Below, piece by piece: positions 5,070 through 43,003 of a stretch of 64,000 nt of DNA. How positions within the stretch are numbered: position 1 is the stretch's first letter; every line of letters begins with the position of its first letter. Where the stretch lies: positions 1,101 through 65,100 of the forward strand of contig CAXMSF010000251.1 of the NCBI GenBank assembly GCA_964196055.1. Direction: 5' to 3'. The translations under genes and the position numbers were made by a program. The notes beneath the pieces are model-generated. The model ran no database searches and was not told the DNA's origin. It was given only the letters and a program-made list of their open reading frames with translations. This DNA is from an uncultured Gammaproteobacteria bacterium. GTDB lineage: Bacteria > Myxococcota_A > UBA9160 > SMWR01.

Positions 5070-6152
5070 ATGAACGCGCAAGACGTCTACTTCGGGGGCC
5101 CCGATCATCCCCCGGGTCGTTTGCGTGACCTGCTCGCGGAACACATCGAAGCCGTCCCAAGCGGTGGCGCGATCGACTGGGTCACCTACTACTTTCGCGA
5201 CCGGCGCCTCGCGGAGGGACTCGCTCGGGCGCACGACCGCGGCGTGCGAGTTCGCGTCACCGTCGAAGGATTGCCGCGTTCGCCGAGTGCGAACGCCTGG
5301 GTGATCGAATTCCTACGAGAGGCCCTCGCGGGAGACCTGCGAGTAGTGCGTGCCATCCATGACAGATGGTTCTGGAACAAGCGGATCCGCCCCAGACTTC
5401 ATGAAAAGCTTTACATATTCTCCGGCCCGGAACCGACGGCATTCATCGGCTCGTTCAATCCCTCCGGCGACGAACCCGAGCTCGAACCGGACACCATCCG
5501 CGAGATCGGCGACCAGGACCGCGGACACAACCTACTGGTGGCGCTGCGCGATCCGGAACTGGTCGCTTCGCTCGTCGAACACGCTCGCGCGCTCCACACG
5601 AAGAGGCACGCGTGGCTCGAACGTTTCCTGCCCAGCGCAAGCCGGGTGCTCCAGAGCGAGGGCCTGAGCGTGCATTTCCTGCCGCGCTGGCGCGCCCATC
5701 CGGTCGACGTTCTGCTCGAGCGATGCGGGGCCGGGCACCGAGTTCGAATCGCGGCTTCGCATCTGAGCGGGAAGTCCTCGACCCAGGCCCTGAAGGCCCT
5801 CGCCCAGCGCGGCGCAAGCATCGAGATCCTCGCCGGGGCCACCGAGCGCCGCGTTCCACCCCGAGTAGAAGAAGAGCTTCGTTCCGCCGGGGTCTCATTC
5901 GAACGGCTGGTTCACTCCGAGGGCTTCCCCATGCACGCGAAGTTCGCCCTGATCGACGGCTGCGACGACCATACCGTCGTATTCGGTAGCTTCAATTGGA
6001 CCCAGCGATCACGCCACCTGAACCGCGAAGTCGTCGCGATCGCGACAGATCCGGAACTCTTCGACGTATTCGCAAAATACTGGGACGCGATTCGGCAGCC
6101 GTCGCTCGTGCCCGCCCGGAACGACGCCGACTCGCTCAGCGCGAAATCGTGA
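5070..6152 (+). CDS. phospholipase D-like (two HKD-type motifs) protein
   Basis: HEKLYIFSG...GSFNPS and HAKFALIDG...GSFNWT, i.e. duplicated HxK(x)4D...GSxN motifs. Start placed at ATG 5070 (MNAQDVYFGG). Confidence 0.7.
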   Translation: MNAQDVYFGGPDHPPGRLRDLLAEHIEAVPSGGAIDWVTYYFRDRRLAEGLARAHDRGVRVRVTVEGLPRSPSANAWVIEFLREALAGDLRVVRAIHDRWFWNKRIRPRLHEKLYIFSGPEPTAFIGSFNPSGDEPELEPDTIREIGDQDRGHNLLVALRDPELVASLVEHARALHTKRHAWLERFLPSASRVLQSEGLSVHFLPRWRAHPVDVLLERCGAGHRVRIAASHLSGKSSTQALKALAQRGASIEILAGATERRVPPRVEEELRSAGVSFERLVHSEGFPMHAKFALIDGCDDHTVVFGSFNWTQRSRHLNREVVAIATDPELFDVFAKYWDAIRQPSLVPARNDADSLSAKS

Positions 6153-7500
6153 ACAGGTGCTCGGACTGCGATTCGACGCGCACGCCTTCGAACCGCCCGA
6201 GCAGACTGCCGAATCGCGCGATCTTCTCCCGGAGTTCGGCTGCGTCCACGCCGGGGAAACGATGCCGGTGGAACTCGAGGTTGGCGCGGTGGCCCACGCG
6301 GTGGCGATTGAAACGCTTCACGGCCGTCCGGCCGGCCAGGTGGACCCGCGCCACGCGGGAACGAAGTAGCTTCGGCGCCGGGCGCGGCCCCGCGTAACCA
6401 GCCGCCTCGAGCACGTCGACCACCCGGTCCGCTGCCAACCGACCATCGAGCGCATCGAGGTGCGCCGCCAGAATCGAGCGCACCTCTGGGTCGTCACGAA
6501 CGCCGAGTTCGCCGCTGAGGATCGATCGCAACGTCTTTTCGGTGTCTTTGATGTCGGCCGCCTGGTGGCTCAGGGAATTCGGCAGCACCATGTCGTAGAC
6601 GGCGTCGCGTACGGGCTGGTAGGCAATCGCGGGGGTGCCGAGGATCATCGCTTCGACGGCCGTGGTGCAGCCGTTGTGGATCAGCGCATCACACGCCATC
6701 AGCCACGGGTAGACGTTGCCCTCGTTCGCGACTTCGACATCGTCGAGTTCCGCCGCAATCGCGCGCCATAGATCGTGACGCTCGGACGGGTGCGGCCGCA
6801 CCACGATCCGGAGGCCCGGGAGCGACCGGCTCAGCTCGGGAATCAACCGCTTGAAGTGCTCGAGCACCCGATTCCGGAAGGCCGCTCGCCCGGCCATGAA
6901 GACGTCCGGCTTCGCAGCACCCCCGGTCACGAGGTTCTTCGTCAGCTCGCTCAGGTTGTCGTGGAAATGGTTCAGGCCCGAGAAATTCGTGTTGATCAGT
7001 ACGAATCGTCCGAAGCGCGCCCGAATCGCCGCAACATCGCGATCGAAGAAAGCGCGGATCTCGGGCCGCATCAGGTCGATGCGTGGGTTGCCGGTGACGT
7101 GGATCGGACAGCCCGGGTAGCCCGCGAAGCCGGCGAACGCGCGAGCGTCATCCTGCCCCCACGCGAACAGGATCTTCACTCGTTCGAGCGCCTTCGCGGA
7201 CAAACGCCGCTGGTAGTAGAACGGGTCGGGAAAGCGGACCAACCCTTCTTCGTCCCAGGCGACGATCTCATGGCCGAGATCCGAGATGATGCCGAACATG
7301 CGATCGCTCGCACGGCGCATACTCTTGGCGACGTAGATGCCCCTCGGGACCGCAGCCATCGCGTGATGGACATAGGCACGCGAACCGAAGACCACTGAAA
7401 AGCCGCGCTCGGCCGCGACCGCCGCAAGCAGCAGCTTCGCGTCCAGCTCCCGGACCTGGCTCTCGACTGGGACGATCAAGCTCGGCTGTTGCGAAGACAT
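6136..7500 (-). CDS. 'surface carbohydrate biosynthesis protein'-type paralog 1 (putative GT-B-like transferase)
   Basis: 454 aa. Shares the N-terminal block SLIVPVESQVRELDAKLLL..GHEIVAWDEEGLV, the central VTGNPRIDLxRPE, RPHPSE, the HNGCTTAVEA block and the C-terminal RFPGV...RF.G..VE...H tail with three other ORFs in this window. Confidence 0.7.
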   Translation of the reverse strand: MSSQQPSLIVPVESQVRELDAKLLLAAVAAERGFSVVFGSRAYVHHAMAAVPRGIYVAKSMRRASDRMFGIISDLGHEIVAWDEEGLVRFPDPFYYQRRLSAKALERVKILFAWGQDDARAFAGFAGYPGCPIHVTGNPRIDLMRPEIRAFFDRDVAAIRARFGRFVLINTNFSGLNHFHDNLSELTKNLVTGGAAKPDVFMAGRAAFRNRVLEHFKRLIPELSRSLPGLRIVVRPHPSERHDLWRAIAAELDDVEVANEGNVYPWLMACDALIHNGCTTAVEAMILGTPAIAYQPVRDAVYDMVLPNSLSHQAADIKDTEKTLRSILSGELGVRDDPEVRSILAAHLDALDGRLAADRVVDVLEAAGYAGPRPAPKLLRSRVARVHLAGRTAVKRFNRHRVGHRANLEFHRHRFPGVDAAELREKIARFGSLLGRFEGVRVESQSEHLFTISR

Positions 7501-7504
7501 GCCG

Positions 7505-7514
7505 CCCCCCCCCC
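7505..7514. repeat. homopolymer C10 (G10 on the coding strand of 6136..7500), 4 nt upstream of its ATG
   Basis: Read directly. The plus strand reads ...gacat|gccg cccccccccc atcagc, so the minus strand reads GGGGGGGGGG-CGGC-ATG. Confidence 0.9.
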
Positions 7515-7688
7515 ATCAGCGGAGATTGGTTCGAAGATCGATATGGCGCATTGGGGAACCCCCTGAGTATACGTCGGAACCGGCGCCGGGGTTCCACCCC
7601 CCTGGGGCAAATTGGCGATTCGGTGGGTGCGCTGATACATCACCGAGAACACATCTCGAGGCGGTGCCTCCTGAAATCGGGAATCTCG

Positions 7689-9116
7689 ATGGCTCGACAA
7701 CCCAGATCGCTGATCGTTCCGGTCGAGAACCAGGTCCGGGAGCTGGATCCCAAATTGCTGGTCGCCTGCGCGGCCGCCGAGCGCGGCTTTCGCGTCTTTC
7801 TCGGCTCGCGCACTCGGATCGACTTCAGAATCGCGTCGTTCCCACGCGGGTTCTACCTGGCGAAAGGCATGACCCCCAAATCGGCGAAGATGTTCCGGAT
7901 CATGCGCCGAATCGGCCACGAGATCGCCGCACTCGACGAGGAGGGACTCGTCTACCACTCGGCTGCGGAATACTGCGCGCGCCGAGTCTCGGACGAAACG
8001 CTGCAGCTCGTCACGATGCTGTTCACCTGGGGCGACGCCGGGGCCAAACTGCTCCGCGACCATCTCGGAGACTCCGCAACCCCGGTACGAGTCACCGGCA
8101 ACCCTCGGATCGACCTGTTGCGGCCCGAGTTGCGCGGCTACTTCGCCGAGGATGCCGCACGAATCCGCGCACGCCACGGACCGTTCCTGCTGATCAACAC
8201 CAACTTCGCCAAGGTGAACGCCTACTTCCCGAAGATGAACCTGCTCGTACCGCCGACCCAGCCCGGTCAGCAGAGCGAACTCGGTGCGGCGGGCATCGGT
8301 CTGCCGCGTGATTTCGCGGAGGGCCTGGCCGCTCACAAGAGCGCGCTGTTCGAACACTTCCGCGCGATGATCCCTGCGCTTCACTCGGCCTTTCCAGGTC
8401 ACCGCCTGATCGTCCGACCGCACCCTTCCGAGAACCGTGCGCCATGGCAGGCGGTCGTCTCGGAGCTCGCGCGGGCCGATGTGATCCACGAGGGAAACGT
8501 GATCGCCTGGCTGGAAGCATCGAGCGCGTTGATCCACAACGGCTGCACGACCGGAATCGAGGCGCTCTGCCTCGGCAAGCCCGCGATCGCGTACCGGCCC
8601 GTGTCATGCGATCCGTTCGACCTGGAGCTACCGAACACGCTCAGTCGGCAATGTTTCGATCTCGACGCGCTGCGCGAGGCCGTCGCGAGCGCGCTCGACG
8701 AGAAGTTCGACGCCCACCCGAACGAAGCTCAGCAACGCCTGGTCGAACACCACATCGCCGCGCGCGACGGCGAGTTGGCAGCCGACCGGATCGTCGACGC
8801 ACTCGTGGAACGCGCGGCCGAAGCCGCGCCACTCCCGTCCGCGCCTCTGCGGCTGCGCGGCCGGCTCGCCGCCACCACGCGCAGCCTCGTGAAGCGCCAC
8901 ATCAAGGCGCGCGTCCCGCAGCACCGCAACAACCCGGCTTACCAACGGAACCGCTACCAGGGTGTATCGGAGCACGAGTTGGAGCAGCGGATCGCGCGCC
9001 TCGGCGCCTGCTTGAATCGCTTCGACGGGCTACGGGTGAGGCCGGTCGCTGAGCACATTCACGAGATCCAGGCAGCCCCCCCCGCAGGGAATCCCCCTGC
9101 TCACGATTCCATATGA
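7689..9116 (+). CDS. 'surface carbohydrate biosynthesis protein'-type paralog 2
   Basis: Start set at ATG 7689 (MARQPRSLIVPVENQVRELDPKLL) by alignment with the other paralog N-termini. Same conserved blocks (VTGNPRIDLLRPE, RPHPSE, HNGCTTGIEA, RYQGVSEHELEQRIARLG). Confidence 0.7.
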   Translation: MARQPRSLIVPVENQVRELDPKLLVACAAAERGFRVFLGSRTRIDFRIASFPRGFYLAKGMTPKSAKMFRIMRRIGHEIAALDEEGLVYHSAAEYCARRVSDETLQLVTMLFTWGDAGAKLLRDHLGDSATPVRVTGNPRIDLLRPELRGYFAEDAARIRARHGPFLLINTNFAKVNAYFPKMNLLVPPTQPGQQSELGAAGIGLPRDFAEGLAAHKSALFEHFRAMIPALHSAFPGHRLIVRPHPSENRAPWQAVVSELARADVIHEGNVIAWLEASSALIHNGCTTGIEALCLGKPAIAYRPVSCDPFDLELPNTLSRQCFDLDALREAVASALDEKFDAHPNEAQQRLVEHHIAARDGELAADRIVDALVERAAEAAPLPSAPLRLRGRLAATTRSLVKRHIKARVPQHRNNPAYQRNRYQGVSEHELEQRIARLGACLNRFDGLRVRPVAEHIHEIQAAPPAGNPPAHDSI

Positions 9117-18172: not shown

Positions 18173-18745
18173 ATGCGAAGAACCCTCTGTGTGCTCGCCC
18201 TGCTTCTCTTCGTTCTCCCTGCTGCGGCCGGGGCTCCCACGACGCTCCACGCTTTCACGATGAATCGGATCGACGGTGCGAAGCAGGCGCTTTCCGACTA
18301 CGAAGGTCAGGTCCTGCTGGTCGTGAATGTCGCGAGCAAGTGCGGGCTCACGAAACAATACGCGGGGCTCGAAACCCTCTACGAGGAATACCGCGCGCAA
18401 GGCTTCGCGGTGCTGGGCTTTCCGTCCAACGATTTCCGCGGCCAGGAACCGGGGACGAACGCGGAGATCGCCGACTTCTGCCGCGCGACCTACGCGGTCG
18501 AGTTCCCGATGTTCGCGAAGATCCACGTGGCCGGTCCCGATCAGCATCCACTCTATGGCTATCTGACCGGGCTGCCGGCGCCGATCGGCGGCCCAGTCGA
18601 GTGGAACTTCCAGAAATACCTGGTCGATCACCATGGCCGCGTGGTCGCGCGATTCACACCAAAGCTGGAGCCGCGCGACCCGGCGATCGTCGAAGCGATC
18701 GAGGCCCTGCTCGCGGAATCGGGCGCCGGCAACGGGCGGGATTGA
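18173..18745 (+). CDS. gpx: glutathione peroxidase (Cys-type), with signal peptide
   Basis: LLVVNVASKCGLTKQY...LGFPSNDFRGQEPG...WNFQKYLV, the canonical GPx motifs. Confidence 0.9.
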   Translation: MRRTLCVLALLLFVLPAAAGAPTTLHAFTMNRIDGAKQALSDYEGQVLLVVNVASKCGLTKQYAGLETLYEEYRAQGFAVLGFPSNDFRGQEPGTNAEIADFCRATYAVEFPMFAKIHVAGPDQHPLYGYLTGLPAPIGGPVEWNFQKYLVDHHGRVVARFTPKLEPRDPAIVEAIEALLAESGAGNGRD

Positions 18746-18801
18746 CCACTCCAAGGATCTTCCATCGACGACCGCTTCCACCCGCTCTCCAGGAGGCCCG
18801 C

Positions 18802-19905
18802 TTGCCCTTATCGATCACCGGTGTTCCGCTCCACACCCGATCGCTGACGTCGGTCGCATCCCTGCGTGAAGATGGGCGCTGGTCGGTTCGTGGCGACGTG
18901 ATCGACCTGCGAAAGTGCGGCTTCGTCCCGATGACCCACGACATTCAGCCGTCCGGAATCATCCACCACATGACGATCGAGATGGTCGTCGATCCCGAGA
19001 CCCTTCGCATCGACGAACTCGTGACGTCTCAACCCCACATCGCGGTCGAGGCCTCCGCTCGCACCGACGGCGAATGTTGCCGCGATCCCGTGCCCCTGCT
19101 TCAGGCGCTCGAAGGCGAAATCATCGACGACGCCTTTACGAAGAAACTCTCCGGGACCTTCGGCGGTCCGCTCGGCTGCTCCCATCTCCTCACCCTGTTC
19201 TTCACGATGGCGGCTGCGATCCCGCGCGCCGTTGCGCGCGAGGCCGAGATCCGCCTCGAACACGAGGAATCACGGGCACCCGGGGAACGCCTCTTCTGGC
19301 GCAGCATCTTCATCGACGGCTACGAAATCGACGATGGCGGGGTCGAACTCTCGGTTCAGCTAGCGGATGTCCACAGCCATCCCCATCACGCCGTGCAGTC
19401 GCCCCTCGACCGGCTCGACCAGCAAGAGGAGGCACGCGTGATCGCCCGGGTCGAGCCGCCGGGTTTCAGCGTGGCACAGCTACGTGCGGCCCGACGCACC
19501 CGGCGCATGCCGAAGCTGGCCGACGCCGTCTGGGAAGACTGCAGCGAGGTCATCGCTCCGCTGATTGGATTTCCCGTGGTCCCAGGCCTCTCGCGACGCG
19601 TGCGTGAACTCCTGCAGGGCGACGAAGCCAACGCGCTCGTCCGGGATGCGCTGCTCCAGCTCGCCCCAGGACACATCCAGGTTCTGGCGGCGATCACGGA
19701 GCGCTGGTTCGCCCCGAGCCGAAAGCTGAAAAGCCAGGCGGATGGACCGAAGGGGGACAAGCTCCCCGCCGGCGGACCGCCGGTGGGCGCCATCGGGGGA
19801 ATGGTCGACTCCTGCTACATGTGGCGGAGCGGCAGTCCCCTGATCGCAGAGCGCGAACGCGTGATGCGATTGCGACTCGAGCGCGAGGCGGAGAGCAGCG
19901 ACTGA
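18802..19905 (+). CDS. DUF2889-like protein
   Basis: Start placed at TTG 18802, 5 nt after AGGAGG (18791-18796), because ORF 18340..19905 overlaps gpx out of frame. Core IIHHMTIEMVVDPETLRIDE...GCSHLLTLFF resembles DUF2889-type proteins from memory. Confidence 0.5.
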   Translation: MPLSITGVPLHTRSLTSVASLREDGRWSVRGDVIDLRKCGFVPMTHDIQPSGIIHHMTIEMVVDPETLRIDELVTSQPHIAVEASARTDGECCRDPVPLLQALEGEIIDDAFTKKLSGTFGGPLGCSHLLTLFFTMAAAIPRAVAREAEIRLEHEESRAPGERLFWRSIFIDGYEIDDGGVELSVQLADVHSHPHHAVQSPLDRLDQQEEARVIARVEPPGFSVAQLRAARRTRRMPKLADAVWEDCSEVIAPLIGFPVVPGLSRRVRELLQGDEANALVRDALLQLAPGHIQVLAAITERWFAPSRKLKSQADGPKGDKLPAGGPPVGAIGGMVDSCYMWRSGSPLIAERERVMRLRLEREAESSD

Positions 19906-38341: not shown

Positions 38342-39124
38342 ATGGGAAAGATGAAAACTGCCTTTTCGATCCCCGCAAACGCCGATTCGTGTTGGGCGCA
38401 TCTGACCCATAGCGCCGCCCGAACCATCCAGATCCAAGACGAGTATGAGCGAGTCGCCAACCTGGGTTGCGGTACGGGATGGGCCATCGCGAGTCTCGCG
38501 GCCAGACATCCCGCTACGAAATTGGTAGGTGTCGATCCCGCCGCGCAAATGTGCGTTCAGGCCGTGCAACGAACGGAGTCTCTTCCCAACTGTCACGATT
38601 CTCGAAGGATCGTTCGAGGCGATTCCCCTCGAGAGCGCTTCGCTCGATTATCTGTACAGCACGCTTTCCTTCCACTGGTGCACGGACCTGGACAAGGCGG
38701 TGGCCGAGCTGAAGCGCGTACCCAAGCCGGGTGGAGAAATGGATCTGATGTTCATCGGCCGGGATAATGGCCGAGAATTCATCCAAGTCACGACGCCTCT
38801 CTTCCTGTCGTACATGGGGCCCAAGCTTCTTCTGGAATCCGCCCGACTCCGAAAGCAGCTGGAGCGAAACGCCGCGGAGGATCTGTTCCGGCAGGCGTTC
38901 CCGGACCGAATCCTGGAGGTGAGCGAGCGCTACGAGACCCACTACGACAGCCTCGAAGGACACTGGGGCTGGGGTGGGTGCGGATCGAGGGTCACTTCAT
39001 TCAGATCCCGCCGGCGAAGCAGCTGGAGTGCGACGCGAAGGTGAAGGCGGCGGTCGCGAGCCTGGAAAACGCTCGCGGCATCCCCCACACGACGCACCTG
39101 CTGCACGTGAAGTTGCGCAGGTGA
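38342..39124 (+). pseudogene. class I SAM-dependent methyltransferase interrupted by two compensating frameshifts
   Basis: The first frame gives VANLGCGTGWAIASLAARHPATKLVGVDPAAQM...ESLPN. After about 38591 the sense continues in the +1 frame: VTILEGSFEAIPLESASLDYLYSTLSFHWCTDLDKAVAELKRVPKPGGEMDLMF...EGHWGW. After about 38970 (G-rich run) it returns to the first frame: WVRIEGHFIQIPPAKQ...HVKLRR*. Confidence 0.6.
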
Positions 39125-40545: not shown

Positions 40546-40581
40546 CGCCGCCGCCGGGGCTCGTCAGCCCCGGCGGCGGCG
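40546..40581. terminator. 16-bp perfect GC stem (CGCCGCCGCCGGGGCT / AGCCCCGGCGGCGGCG) with a 4-nt loop between convergent ORFs
   Basis: Read directly. Confidence 0.5.
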
Positions 40582-40861
40582 AGCAACGCGCCACCCCGTC
40601 GCACGACGAGGGGGAACCTGGAAGAGACCGCGCGCGGCCTGCCGGACCTCCGGGTCGCTCAGGCGAAAGACCGCGCGATCGAGTGCGTAGTGGAGGAAGG
40701 CGGTCGCGAAGCCGATGGCGACGAGCGCCTGTACCCCACGCGAAATTCGACAGCGCATCCGCAACCGTCGGCATGACCTTTTTGGCGAAGCCCGGTTCGC
40801 CCTGGTCGAGTGCTTCGATTTCCATGATCGGGAGCAGCAGCGCCGAGAGCGCCACGAGCAC
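40564..40861 (-). pseudogene. 3' fragment of an integral-membrane-protein gene, with a frameshift in a G4 run
   Basis: One frame gives (A)ALSLVLVALSALLLPIMEIEALDQGEPGFAKKVMPTVADALSNFAWG. After the CCCC run at 40734-40737 the sense continues in another frame (VQALVAIGFATAFLHYALDRAVFRLSDPEVRQAARGL...*). Upstream the frame is closed by stops inside the 94-bp repeat, so the 5' part of the gene is missing. Confidence 0.45.
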
Positions 40862-40872
40862 GAGGCTGAGTG

Positions 40873-40966
40873 CCGCCTACGGTCCAGTCTCAGCCGCTTA
40901 CCCCATGGGAACTTGACACTTCGTACCTTATCGGAAATCGATCGCCCGCTTCTTTGTCCTACCCGT
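40873..40966. repeat. 94-bp repeat, copy 1
   Basis: CCGCCTACGGTCCAGTCTCAGCCGCTTACCCCATGGGAACTTGACACTTCGTACCTTATCGGAAATCGATCGCCCGCTTCTTTGTCCTACCCGT. Identical to 42659-42752 except for 2 substitutions. Confidence 0.9.
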
Positions 40967-41033
40967 TGAAGGACCTTTCCCAGGCGCACTACTTGAGCGC
41001 CGCGCAGATGATGGACCTCGAGGCCGGCGCTGC

Positions 41034-41492
41034 CTCGAGCGCCGCCAGATCGAACTGGTGGCGGCGCGCGTCTCCGCCGGCCGCGAGTGCTTCTACTGAA
41101 CCAGCTCCCACGCAATGCTGCTCCGTGCGAGCGGCGAGGTCTCCGGAAACGCGGTGGACGTCTCGGCCATCACCGACGACGCCGCCGCCCAGGCGAGCGG
41201 CATCGCCCACGCCGAAGCGCTGCTGGCCTTCGCCGCGGCGGCGGCCCGACGCGACGACGCCGGCCTCACGGCTGCACGAGCACGCCTGCTGGACGAGACG
41301 GGAGCGGAGGCGTTGGTGGGCGCCGCCGCGGTGGTAGGAAACTTCGAGCGAATGACCCGCATCGCCGACTCGACGGGCATCCCCCTCGACACGCCGACTG
41401 GCTCCCGAGATCGTCTGACTGGTTCGGGAAGCAGGGCTTCGGATGAGCCCCCGATGGAACAGTGCGAAGCGGCACACCCAGGGTTAGAGTGA
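41034..41492 (+). pseudogene. AhpD/carboxymuconolactone-decarboxylase-like ORF lacking a normal start, with an in-frame TGA at the second Cys of the CxxCxxxH motif (nonsense mutation or selenocysteine codon)
   Basis: Same-frame translation: LERRQIELVAARVSAGRECFY-TGA(41097-41099)-TSSHAMLLRASGEVS...AAVVGNFERMTRIADSTGIPLD. No in-frame ATG/GTG/TTG occurs between the upstream stop (40914) and 41058. Confidence 0.5.
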
Positions 41493-41499
41493 TGAAAAA

Positions 41500-42624
41500 A
41501 TGGATCCCACCTTCTCGGTCTTTGCGCGGGCGTTCCGAATCGAAGCGCCCTTCATGAACGAATGGCTGGAGTACCACGTTGGCATCGGTTTCTCGACCTT
41601 TTACATCGTCGTAGCGGGGCGGGGAGAGGACACGGACGAGGATCACGAATTTCTTCTCCAGCGCATCGCTCCCGAGTTCATACCGCGGGTAAGGTTGTTC
41701 AAGGCGCCGGACTGCATCCGCGTGCCCGAAGTTTCCGAACAGTTGAACCTCCGCAGCATCTGGGATGAAGACGAGCGGGTCCTGTTCATCGATATCGACG
41801 AGTTCCTGGTGCTGCAACGCCACGGCACCATTCAGGAATTCTGGGAACAGATGCCCGGGCGCAACGACGGGTTCTCTTTCGAATGGGTGAACTATCCATC
41901 GGACGATTGGGGATACGATGGGCTCAAGAGCCATATGCGCAGCAAATCACCCCTGGTGGGTGTCAACCGCAAGGGTATGGCCCGGATTGGATCGCTCGAA
42001 AAAATCGGAAATCATCGCCACTCGTACATCCCAGGGGCCTTCTGCCGGAAGGTAGAGATTTCCGACGCGTTCTTGTGTCACCTGTGCAACCGTGGACTCG
42101 CCGACACGATTTGCAGGATCCTCTGCGGATCGTTCAAATCGAACGATACCGACATCGCGTTGATGAAAGAGTTGATACGAGGCGCTGCCCCCCCGGCGAA
42201 TCTTCCTCGACGTCTGATCCTGATGCACGCACAATTATTGATGGCCGCGCAGAGCAACCATCGAGTCGCGCTCGCGAAACATCTGCCTGAGCTGCGCTAC
42301 GGATGCGACGACGATGCCCTGTCCGAACTAATCGGACGAGCGCTCGGTGCTGGAACCAATAAAGACGAGATCGAGCTGACGCGATGCGCGATGAACATCA
42401 CGAAGAAATACCGGGTGAAATTCGACATCTCCCCCAGAGAGATCCATGACCTGGGCGGCTTCGTGACGATCTGCAACAGACTGCGCGTCGTCGAACGAAA
42501 TGCGATCGGGGATGGTGAAGGAGAGCACGTCTGCTACACGCTGGCCGCCGTCCCGGAAGACGGAGGCAAAGGCCTTCTGCGGCAGTGGCGGCCCTGGAGC
42601 AGGTGGCTCCGGCGACGCATGTGA
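41500..42624 (+). CDS. glycosyltransferase family 92 (DUF23)-like protein
   Basis: FARAFRIEAPFMNEWLEYHVGIGFSTFYIV...VLFIDIDEFLVL, the characteristic GT92/Glyco_tranf_2_4 N-terminal pattern. More AT-rich than the backbone. Confidence 0.6.
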   Translation: MDPTFSVFARAFRIEAPFMNEWLEYHVGIGFSTFYIVVAGRGEDTDEDHEFLLQRIAPEFIPRVRLFKAPDCIRVPEVSEQLNLRSIWDEDERVLFIDIDEFLVLQRHGTIQEFWEQMPGRNDGFSFEWVNYPSDDWGYDGLKSHMRSKSPLVGVNRKGMARIGSLEKIGNHRHSYIPGAFCRKVEISDAFLCHLCNRGLADTICRILCGSFKSNDTDIALMKELIRGAAPPANLPRRLILMHAQLLMAAQSNHRVALAKHLPELRYGCDDDALSELIGRALGAGTNKDEIELTRCAMNITKKYRVKFDISPREIHDLGGFVTICNRLRVVERNAIGDGEGEHVCYTLAAVPEDGGKGLLRQWRPWSRWLRRRM

Positions 42625-42658: not shown

Positions 42659-42752
42659 CCGCCTACGGTCCAGTCTCAGCCGCTTACCCCATGGGAATTT
42701 GACACTTCGTACCTTATCGGACATCGATCGCCCGCTTCTTTGTCCTACCCGT
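42659..42752. repeat. 94-bp repeat, copy 2
   Basis: Same orientation as copy 1. Differences: C->T (GGGAAC/GGGAAT) and A->C (CGGAAA/CGGACA). Confidence 0.9.
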
Positions 42753-42769: not shown

Positions 42770-43003
42770 TGGCGTGTCGCGAAACAGTACGAGGTCGAAT
42801 TCGTCGATTCCCTGGAGGAAATCCGCGAGATCGGCGGTTTCGTCGCGATGTGCAACCGGCTGCGGGGCGCTCGCAGAAACGTGGTTAGAACGGGTGACGG
42901 GGAGCGCGCCCGCTACACCGTTGCAGCGGTTCCCCGCGAGACTGTGGATCAAACCGAGCCCCCGCGCTCTCGCTGGCGGCGATGGTTTCAGCGAAGAAGC
43001 TGA
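42770..43003 (+). pseudogene. C-terminal relic (~75 aa) of a second GT92-like paralog
   Basis: KQYEVEFVDSLEEIREIGGFVAMCNRLRGARRNVVRTGDGERARYTVAAVPRE...RWRRWFQRRS aligns with the C-terminus of 41500..42624 (KKYRVKFDISPREIHDLGGFVTICNRLRVVERNAIGDGEGEHVCYTLAAVPED...RWLRRRM). Nothing corresponds to the first ~300 aa. Confidence 0.6.

Follow-up and report, generated by a model that had tools for sequence, protein, structure and literature searches.

A probable pseudogene of the AhpD_rel_CFYUT selenoprotein family that keeps its predicted selenocysteine codon and a SECIS-type hairpin

Our analysis of a 64-kb stretch of DNA (hereafter the window, meaning the whole of that stretch) centred on an in-frame TGA at positions 41097-41099 of the + strand. 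This codon lies in what is very probably a pseudogene—a broken internal fragment of an AhpD_rel_CFYUT gene, unable to make a selenoprotein. Judged from its relatives, the TGA is a genuine selenocysteine (Sec) codon by descent, and what made the gene a pseudogene was truncation, rearrangement and a frameshift; the TGA itself was not the cause. The relic occupies 430 bases (40967-41396, + strand) and corresponds to residues ~202-348 of a protein of ~400, as delimited by tblastn, DNA alignment and the family model NF041238. The selenoprotein family from which it derives is already known and curated, and the locus does not represent a new selenoprotein.

Translation of positions 40854-41492 gives ...RRQIELVAARVSAGRECFY*TSSHAMLLRASGEVS..., with the asterisk standing for the TGA at 41097-41099. 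The frame is bounded by a stop codon at 40914-40916 and by a TGA at 41490-41492, and 130 sense codons follow the in-frame TGA, one fewer than the 131 counted in an earlier sequence-only reading of this DNA. That reading had placed the TGA at the second cysteine of an AhpD-like CxxCxxxH centre, a position borne out by the translation: the stretch at 41085-41111 (+) reads E-C-F-Y-TGA-T-S-S-H, and the codons TGC TTC TAC TGA ACC at 41088-41102 spell C-F-Y-U-T with TGA at U. The complete pattern is E-x11-C-x2-(TGA)-x3-H, in which E occupies 41050-41052, C 41088-41090, U 41097-41099 and H 41109-41111; the AhpD/CMD redox motif E-x11-C-x2-C-x3-H is present in the relic with a Sec codon replacing the second cysteine, and the redox motif E-C-F-Y-U-T-S-S-H is common to all relatives examined. 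Upstream of the TGA, the sole in-frame start is a GTG at 41056, already past the conserved glutamate. The 125-aa ORF P0001 (41115-41492, +), which begins at the first ATG past the TGA, is an annotation by-product generated by the gene finder.

The family assignment rests on NF041238, a curated equivalog model of 357 positions named 'AhpD_rel_CFYUT, alkylhydroperoxidase-related (seleno)protein' (NCBIfam), the name of which spells the very motif seen at the locus, C-F-Y-U-T. This model was the best NCBIfam match of the raw frame (E 2.6e-50, 171.7 bits, profile positions 214-340 of 357), and the frameshift-corrected relic scored 182.8 bits against it (E 1.1e-53, positions 194-337 of 357). The curated cut-off of 175 bits lies between these two values, with the corrected relic above and the raw frame below. 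The relic offers neither a full-length match to the model (positions 1-357) nor an uninterrupted frame with a start codon; the full protein of the related locus L005 scores 479 bits over positions 1-356. With the more general models, the relic reached 21.5 bits for Pfam CMD (PF02627), under the cut-off of 23, where an intact relative scored 27.2 bits over residues 224-275, and 23.4-23.8 bits for TIGR00778, below the threshold of 27.8. What survives takes in most of the AhpD-like domain, at positions 51-145 of 178 in TIGR01926.

A protein search returned ~90 relatives, nearly all of them ORFs of 115-160 aa that start just past the motif—the expected product of gene callers stopping at a Sec codon. 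When the underlying DNA of four related loci (L004, L005, L006 and L008) was inspected, an ORF of ~245 aa was found directly upstream of an ORF of ~150 aa in each, and the paired ORFs form a single ~400-aa frame with one in-frame TGA in the context ECFY*T..H. We also observed that every intact member across L004-L088 is split at the Sec codon into ORFs of ~245 aa and ~115-160 aa, both unannotated. Over the shared part, the nearest members are L005 (87% identical) and L004 (78% identical). The N-terminal domain of the relatives, ~200 aa long, contains an invariant C53-x2-C56 pair and had no match in a Pfam search. Among solved structures, those closest to the intact family are AhpD 6k40 (E 1.6e-6, residues 204-339) and the peroxidase-related proteins 2oyo and 2pfx.

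Against this background of intact genes, the copy in the window is incomplete at both ends and broken in between. A tblastn search with four full-length relatives against the whole window recovered only residues 202-220 (40966-41022) and 223-348 (41028-41405, in the frame of the TGA), with the frame switching between 41022 and 41028, and DNA alignment with L005 and L004 showed that homology starts right after 40966 and stops at 41396. The frame change coincides with a 1-nt deletion at 41026-41029 (+), evident both in the tblastn frame change and in the DNA alignment with L005; the local context is GAGGCCGG-CGCTGC in the window and AAAGCGGGCCGCTGC in L005 (GGCCGGC-GC versus GGGCCGC). Beyond 41396, where homology ends, a non-homologous junction (41397-41499, +) separates the relic from the next gene, and the C-terminal ~50 codons are gone. 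Neither the N-terminal 200 residues (tblastn at permissive thresholds) nor the C-terminal ~50 residues (tblastn) were found anywhere in the 64 kb. Two candidate locations for the missing tail were rejected: a decayed tail past 41397 in another frame, for which permissive tblastn came back empty and the DNA resemblance at ~41430-41445 stayed at chance level, and a tail placed after the downstream gene ORF374 under an inversion model, where no tail sequence is present.

The locus cannot make a selenoprotein because it has no start, lacks ~200 N-terminal and ~50 C-terminal codons and is frameshifted. Several of these features had been anticipated by the sequence-only reading, which noted the absence of an in-frame start (the 5' end of the relic has been replaced by a 94-nt repeat), a surrounding region of gene debris (a frameshifted methyltransferase and a glycosyltransferase fragment lie near the relic) and an ATG-ATG at 41008-41013 that sits in another frame and would need a 1-nt indel; the deletion at 41026-41029 does join the two frames. 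The suggestion that this ATG-ATG might serve as a start did not hold, as it encodes an internal Met-Met at about residues 215-216 of the ~400-aa protein. Taken together, the missing start, the 1-nt indel and the surrounding gene debris are decisive against a functional gene.

Drawing on these comparisons, we propose the following scenario. In intact members, the centre E-x11-C-F-Y-U-T-x2-H would carry selenocysteine in place of the second cysteine, and recoding of the UGA by SelB and Sec-tRNA would depend on a 7-bp hairpin located within the L-L-R-A/V-S codons. The UGA and the hairpin would both have passed to the window copy without change. This copy would have been inactivated when its 5' half was cut away where the 94-nt repeat now marks the breakpoint, its 3' end was lost on joining a glycosyltransferase gene that had been inverted or rearranged, and one nucleotide was deleted. 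On this view, the repeat would also have taken part in the rearrangement.

The repeat itself occurs twice in the window. The first copy, R1 (40873-40966, +), forms the 5' breakpoint of the relic, homology to intact genes starting at the first base 3' of it, and is 98% identical to the second copy, R2 (42659-42752, +). The two copies have sharp edges on both sides and differ from each other at two positions. A metagenome scan with the 28-mer at the 3' end of the repeat returned three contigs, L094 and L095/L096, the latter two representing one locus. The R-like copies on these contigs (L094 1648-1737, - strand; L095 2122-2214, + strand; L096 4474-4565, - strand) are 80-83% identical to R, of equal length and with the same right end. 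R and the R-like copies agree at every position of their last ~40 nt; the 5' part has drifted apart, with indel lengths not divisible by three, which argues that R is a discrete non-coding unit. It was recovered from at least two organisms and in four distinct flanking contexts, and a 3' gene fragment comes immediately after three of the four copies.

Further characterisation of the repeat gave a series of negative results: neither strand has a significant fold, Rfam and comparison with promoter and terminator consensus sequences gave nothing, the ends show neither inverted repeats nor attC-like GTTRRRY motifs, target duplications were not seen, the flanking ORFs match no Pfam or NCBIfam model and viral contigs contain no copy. 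A MITE-like element or a recombination site could be considered as candidates. That the repeat is an undescribed small mobile or recombination element which truncates and re-joins genes, with the relic as its by-product, strikes us as an unlikely proposition. As a separate observation, L095 carries a tRNA-Sec gene at 1179-1277 (RF01852, 69.9 bits; ARAGORN anticodon TCA), 850 nt upstream of the R-like element, with AT-rich DNA directly after the tRNA and a 175-aa secreted-protein ORF between the two. The tRNA-Sec and the repeat share no sequence similarity, and their proximity may be a coincidence or may reflect a selC-adjacent insertion.

The presence of a repeat exactly at the breakpoint raises the question of whether the break exists in the genome at all. 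The gene could be intact there if the 94-nt repeat had produced a chimeric join during assembly, a scenario that we regard as very unlikely. Several circumstances speak for it: the sequence comes from a MAG, one of the sister contigs stops ~160 nt to the left of R1, the Logan contig described below ends inside both repeats, another gene with a frameshift is found 2.5 kb upstream, and all four available assemblies are metagenomic and may share one project, which makes a shared error at a repeat conceivable. However, the same locus was recovered in three other assemblies—MAG contigs of GCA_964196235.1 and GCA_964196265.1, and a Logan contig—at 99.5-99.9% identity, with an identical frameshift context in all three. 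The window and both sister MAG contigs are collinear across R1, and the window and one of these contigs are also collinear across R2; the sister contigs, being 99.5% and 99.8% identical to the window, do not derive from the same reads. Moreover, the 1,783-nt Logan contig spans 40906-42688, running from inside R1, across the R1/relic junction and the 3' breakpoint, to inside R2, which suggests that the R1/relic junction is unbranched in the read set of that contig, and the repeat copies differ at two positions. Finally, neither the 3' truncation nor the frameshift is located at a repeat, and the missing N-terminal and tail sequences turned up nowhere else in the 64 kb.

To place the TGA among its relatives, species-representative genomes were scanned with the family alignment, which gave 80 loci from MAGs of Myxococcota/'Deltaproteobacteria', Binatia, Alpha- and Gammaproteobacteria, Acidimicrobiia, Chloroflexota, Planctomycetota and others. 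The motif region was covered in 86 of 88 loci (three of the 86 being the other assemblies of the window locus), and the aligned codon is TGA in every one of them; TGC or TGT occurs in 0 of the 86, i.e., no Cys-form member exists among the loci examined. This uniformity indicates that the TGA is ancestral.

A SECIS-type hairpin with a 7-bp stem and a 5-nt loop, GCUGCUC-CGUGC-GAGCGGC, was identified at 41117-41135 (+) by minimum-free-energy (MFE) folding, pairing analysis of 82 sequences and RNAalifold. It begins ~20 nt past the TGA, with a UGA-to-loop spacing of 24 nt, and folding each sequence singly over the 70 nt that follow the TGA gives the same hairpin for the window and for most relatives. 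In an ungapped alignment of 82 sequences, covering 50 nt counted from the TGA, 93.3% of the cells in columns 21-27 versus 33-39 are paired, a figure that drops to 28-49% when the 3' partner is slid by 1-3 columns; none of 500 shuffles matched the observed pairing or covariation score. RNAalifold independently paired columns 22-27 with 33-38, the pair 22-38 is kept via a double change in 10 sequences, and loop position 2 is an invariant G. Covariation is limited since the helix also encodes the conserved L-L-R-A/V-S. The bSECIS model allows 3-9 nt for the loop and 4-16 bp for the upper stem, and prescribes a G in loop positions 1-2 and a UGA-loop spacing of 16-37 nt (PMC13188914), and the undamaged hairpin in the window fits all of these constraints (loop of 5 nt, stem of 7 bp, G2, 24 nt). 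On comparative grounds, the hairpin probably acts as a working SECIS in intact members of the family.

These results revise the sequence-only reading in several respects. It had found no convincing SECIS-like hairpin in the 60 nt after the TGA, where a conserved one is in fact present, and the fold that it recommended does place a SECIS-type hairpin in the MFE structure of the window copy. Of its two proposals for the codon, the selenocysteine candidate stands insofar as the Sec codon was inherited, but truncation and frameshift leave the locus unable to make a selenoprotein; the fresh pseudogene by nonsense mutation is right as to the pseudogene, but the TGA is not the lesion, given TGA at 86 of 86 loci and the conserved hairpin. 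The alignment with homologs that it had proposed refutes a simple nonsense mutation, as the relatives carry TGA and none has TGC or TGT.

Could the gene nevertheless be functional and intact, its TGA read as Sec within a complete protein? The TGA and the SECIS hairpin are undamaged, the fragment is well conserved and its corrected score falls just above the family cut-off, such that the sequence taken alone looks 'alive'. This reading is nonetheless extremely improbable: there is no start, the N-terminal 200 residues with the C53/C56 domain are missing, as are the C-terminal ~50 residues, the frame is interrupted at 41026-41029, and the sole in-frame start ahead of the TGA (GTG 41056) lies past the conserved glutamate.

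It is hardly more credible that the relic is expressed as a shortened, stand-alone AhpD-domain selenoprotein starting in or at the repeat (GTG 40870) or at GTG 41056. The surviving part does cover most of the AhpD-like domain, and the open frame of the repeat is joined in frame to the pre-frameshift part of the relic, from GTG 40870; the same in-frame joining recurs after R2 and in L095. But a start at GTG 40870 would be separated from the TGA by the frameshift, a search for promoter-like sites came back empty, the domain has lost both of its ends and the fourth repeat copy (L094) is differently framed; the open frame would run on into the downstream sequence at three of four copies by chance with a probability of ~0.1-0.2. 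That a Cys codon of a Cys-type AhpD/CMD gene was freshly turned into a nonsense codon, an idea for which the pseudogene status of the locus amid gene debris might speak, has practically no chance of being correct in view of the TGA at all 86 loci (three of them other assemblies of the window locus) with no TGC or TGT, the conserved recoding hairpin 3' of the codon and a curated family, NF041238, that is named for the Sec motif.

The reading that we favour, a pseudogene with an inherited Sec codon, also has a time dimension. The dN/dS between the relic and L005 was 0.16 over 143 codons, a small sample, and changes polarised with outgroups numbered 9 non-synonymous and 11 synonymous on the window branch versus 8 and 17 on the L005 branch. 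Among the columns conserved at ≥95%, one of 21 is violated, by a D-to-G change at 41319-41321. The low dN/dS and the single change at a conserved column suggest that divergence took place mostly under purifying selection, and hence that the inactivation is recent.

The genomic neighbourhood carries further traces of rearrangement. Downstream of the relic lie a complete 374-aa glycosyltransferase-like gene, ORF374 (41500-42624, +; Pfam GT2_4 and weak GT92), and, directly after R2, a 76-aa C-terminal fragment of a second glycosyltransferase paralog detected by tblastn (42773-43003, +). In L005, the gene convergent to the intact AhpD_rel gene (5439-6329, - strand) is homologous to both—54% identical to ORF374 and, over its residues 222-297, 63% identical to the 76-aa fragment (tblastn). 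By virtue of this shared homology, the relic probably sits at the ancestral neighbourhood, since inverted, duplicated and cut; the convergent orientation of the homologue in L005 indicates an inversion and a partial duplication in the window.

Other genes around the relic also appear damaged. The methyltransferase 2.5 kb upstream seems to be frameshifted, with its SAM motif VANLGCGTG at 38453-38479 in a different frame from the C-terminal half of Methyltransf_11 (38529-39044) and the switch falling near 38580-38600; the same truncated ORF was called in the sister assembly L001. To the left of R1, at 40564-40861 (- strand), a protein-like N-terminus, MLVALSALLLPIMEIEALDQGEPGFAKKVMPTVADALSNFAWG, is accompanied by a protein-like stretch, GVQALVAIGFATAFLHYALDRAVFRLSDPEVRQAARGLF, in another frame; a Pfam search of this region gave no match, and the region could be a further frameshifted remnant. 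Elsewhere, the window consists of ordinary chromosomal DNA, with genes for an ABC transporter, NeuB, NqrA, acyl-CoA dehydrogenases and a hybrid histidine kinase. A DUF2889 gene is found at 18340-19905, and L006/L007 have another (L006 2701-3438), placed two genes upstream of their intact AhpD_rel gene. A scan of the window for pairs of ORFs separated by an in-frame TGA gave an excess of spurious high-GC ORFs, with no CxxU or UxxC context among the pairs.

The search for Sec machinery in the window covered tRNA-Sec and SelD. No tRNA-Sec was detected by ARAGORN or Rfam, nor any tRNA gene or Rfam match of any kind, and tblastn with the SelD fusion of L004 found no SelD homolog. When the SelD domain of L004 was used as a query against databases, many Myxococcota SelD proteins were returned, none above 69% identity, and the candidates P0192 and P0097 belong to other assemblies. 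In a check for a second copy of the AhpD_rel gene, the sole other NCBI/Logan match examined (P0006) came from a different sample. The relative L004 (78% identical) encodes, at 6741-8996 (- strand), a 751-aa protein in which a pyridine-nucleotide-disulfide oxidoreductase (Ndh) is fused to SelD (AIRS/AIRS_C). Its gene is two genes away from the intact AhpD_rel gene of L004, and the fusion type has been mentioned previously (PMC2398784).

With its UGA and SECIS still intact, the relic implies that the lineage used Sec until recently. 'Selenoprotein loss in progress' has been proposed as a process (PMC1794560), and the relic can be seen as a snapshot of it. Taken alone, the relic is of small importance: the family is curated already and the loss of one copy is routine genome decay. 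The findings bear more directly on annotation, where an in-frame TGA in the NF041238 family should be called as Sec instead of being rendered as two ORFs, and fragments such as this relic should be flagged as pseudogenes. In addition, the comparison of 82 sequences furnishes a clean, family-specific SECIS hairpin for NF041238.

Set beside known systems, the hairpin resembles the bacterial SECIS of the E. coli fdhF type in that both lie in the coding region shortly after the UGA; it differs in being short-stemmed, in having no bulged U and in its definition by comparative analysis. With AhpD of the M. tuberculosis type and the CMD proteins of solved structure (6k40, 2oyo, 2pfx), the family has in common the centre E-x11-C-x2-C-x3-H, but it has a predicted Sec for the second cysteine and an added N-terminal domain, and the similarity is weak. 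Further parallels are AhpD-like 1 (COG2128) and AhpD-like 2 (pfam02627), two selenoprotein families with a CxxU motif described in an ocean metagenome survey and widespread in uncultured marine bacteria (PMC2398784). The sequence-only reading had noted that AhpD-like selenoproteins were reported in such surveys, leaving aside which cysteine is replaced; the published CxxU shows that Sec substitutes the second one. These families and the one analysed here share an AhpD/CMD-type domain, CxxU and a predicted Sec for the second cysteine, but AhpD-like 1 and 2, compared by their descriptions, were defined by single-domain matches, whereas the family of the relic is ~400 aa long with an extra N-terminal domain of ~200 aa. 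Relative to NF041238 itself, the window copy shares C-F-Y-U-T, the upstream glutamate, the downstream histidine and the downstream hairpin, but it has no start, N-terminal domain or tail and is frameshifted, in keeping with a relic and not an expressible member of the family.
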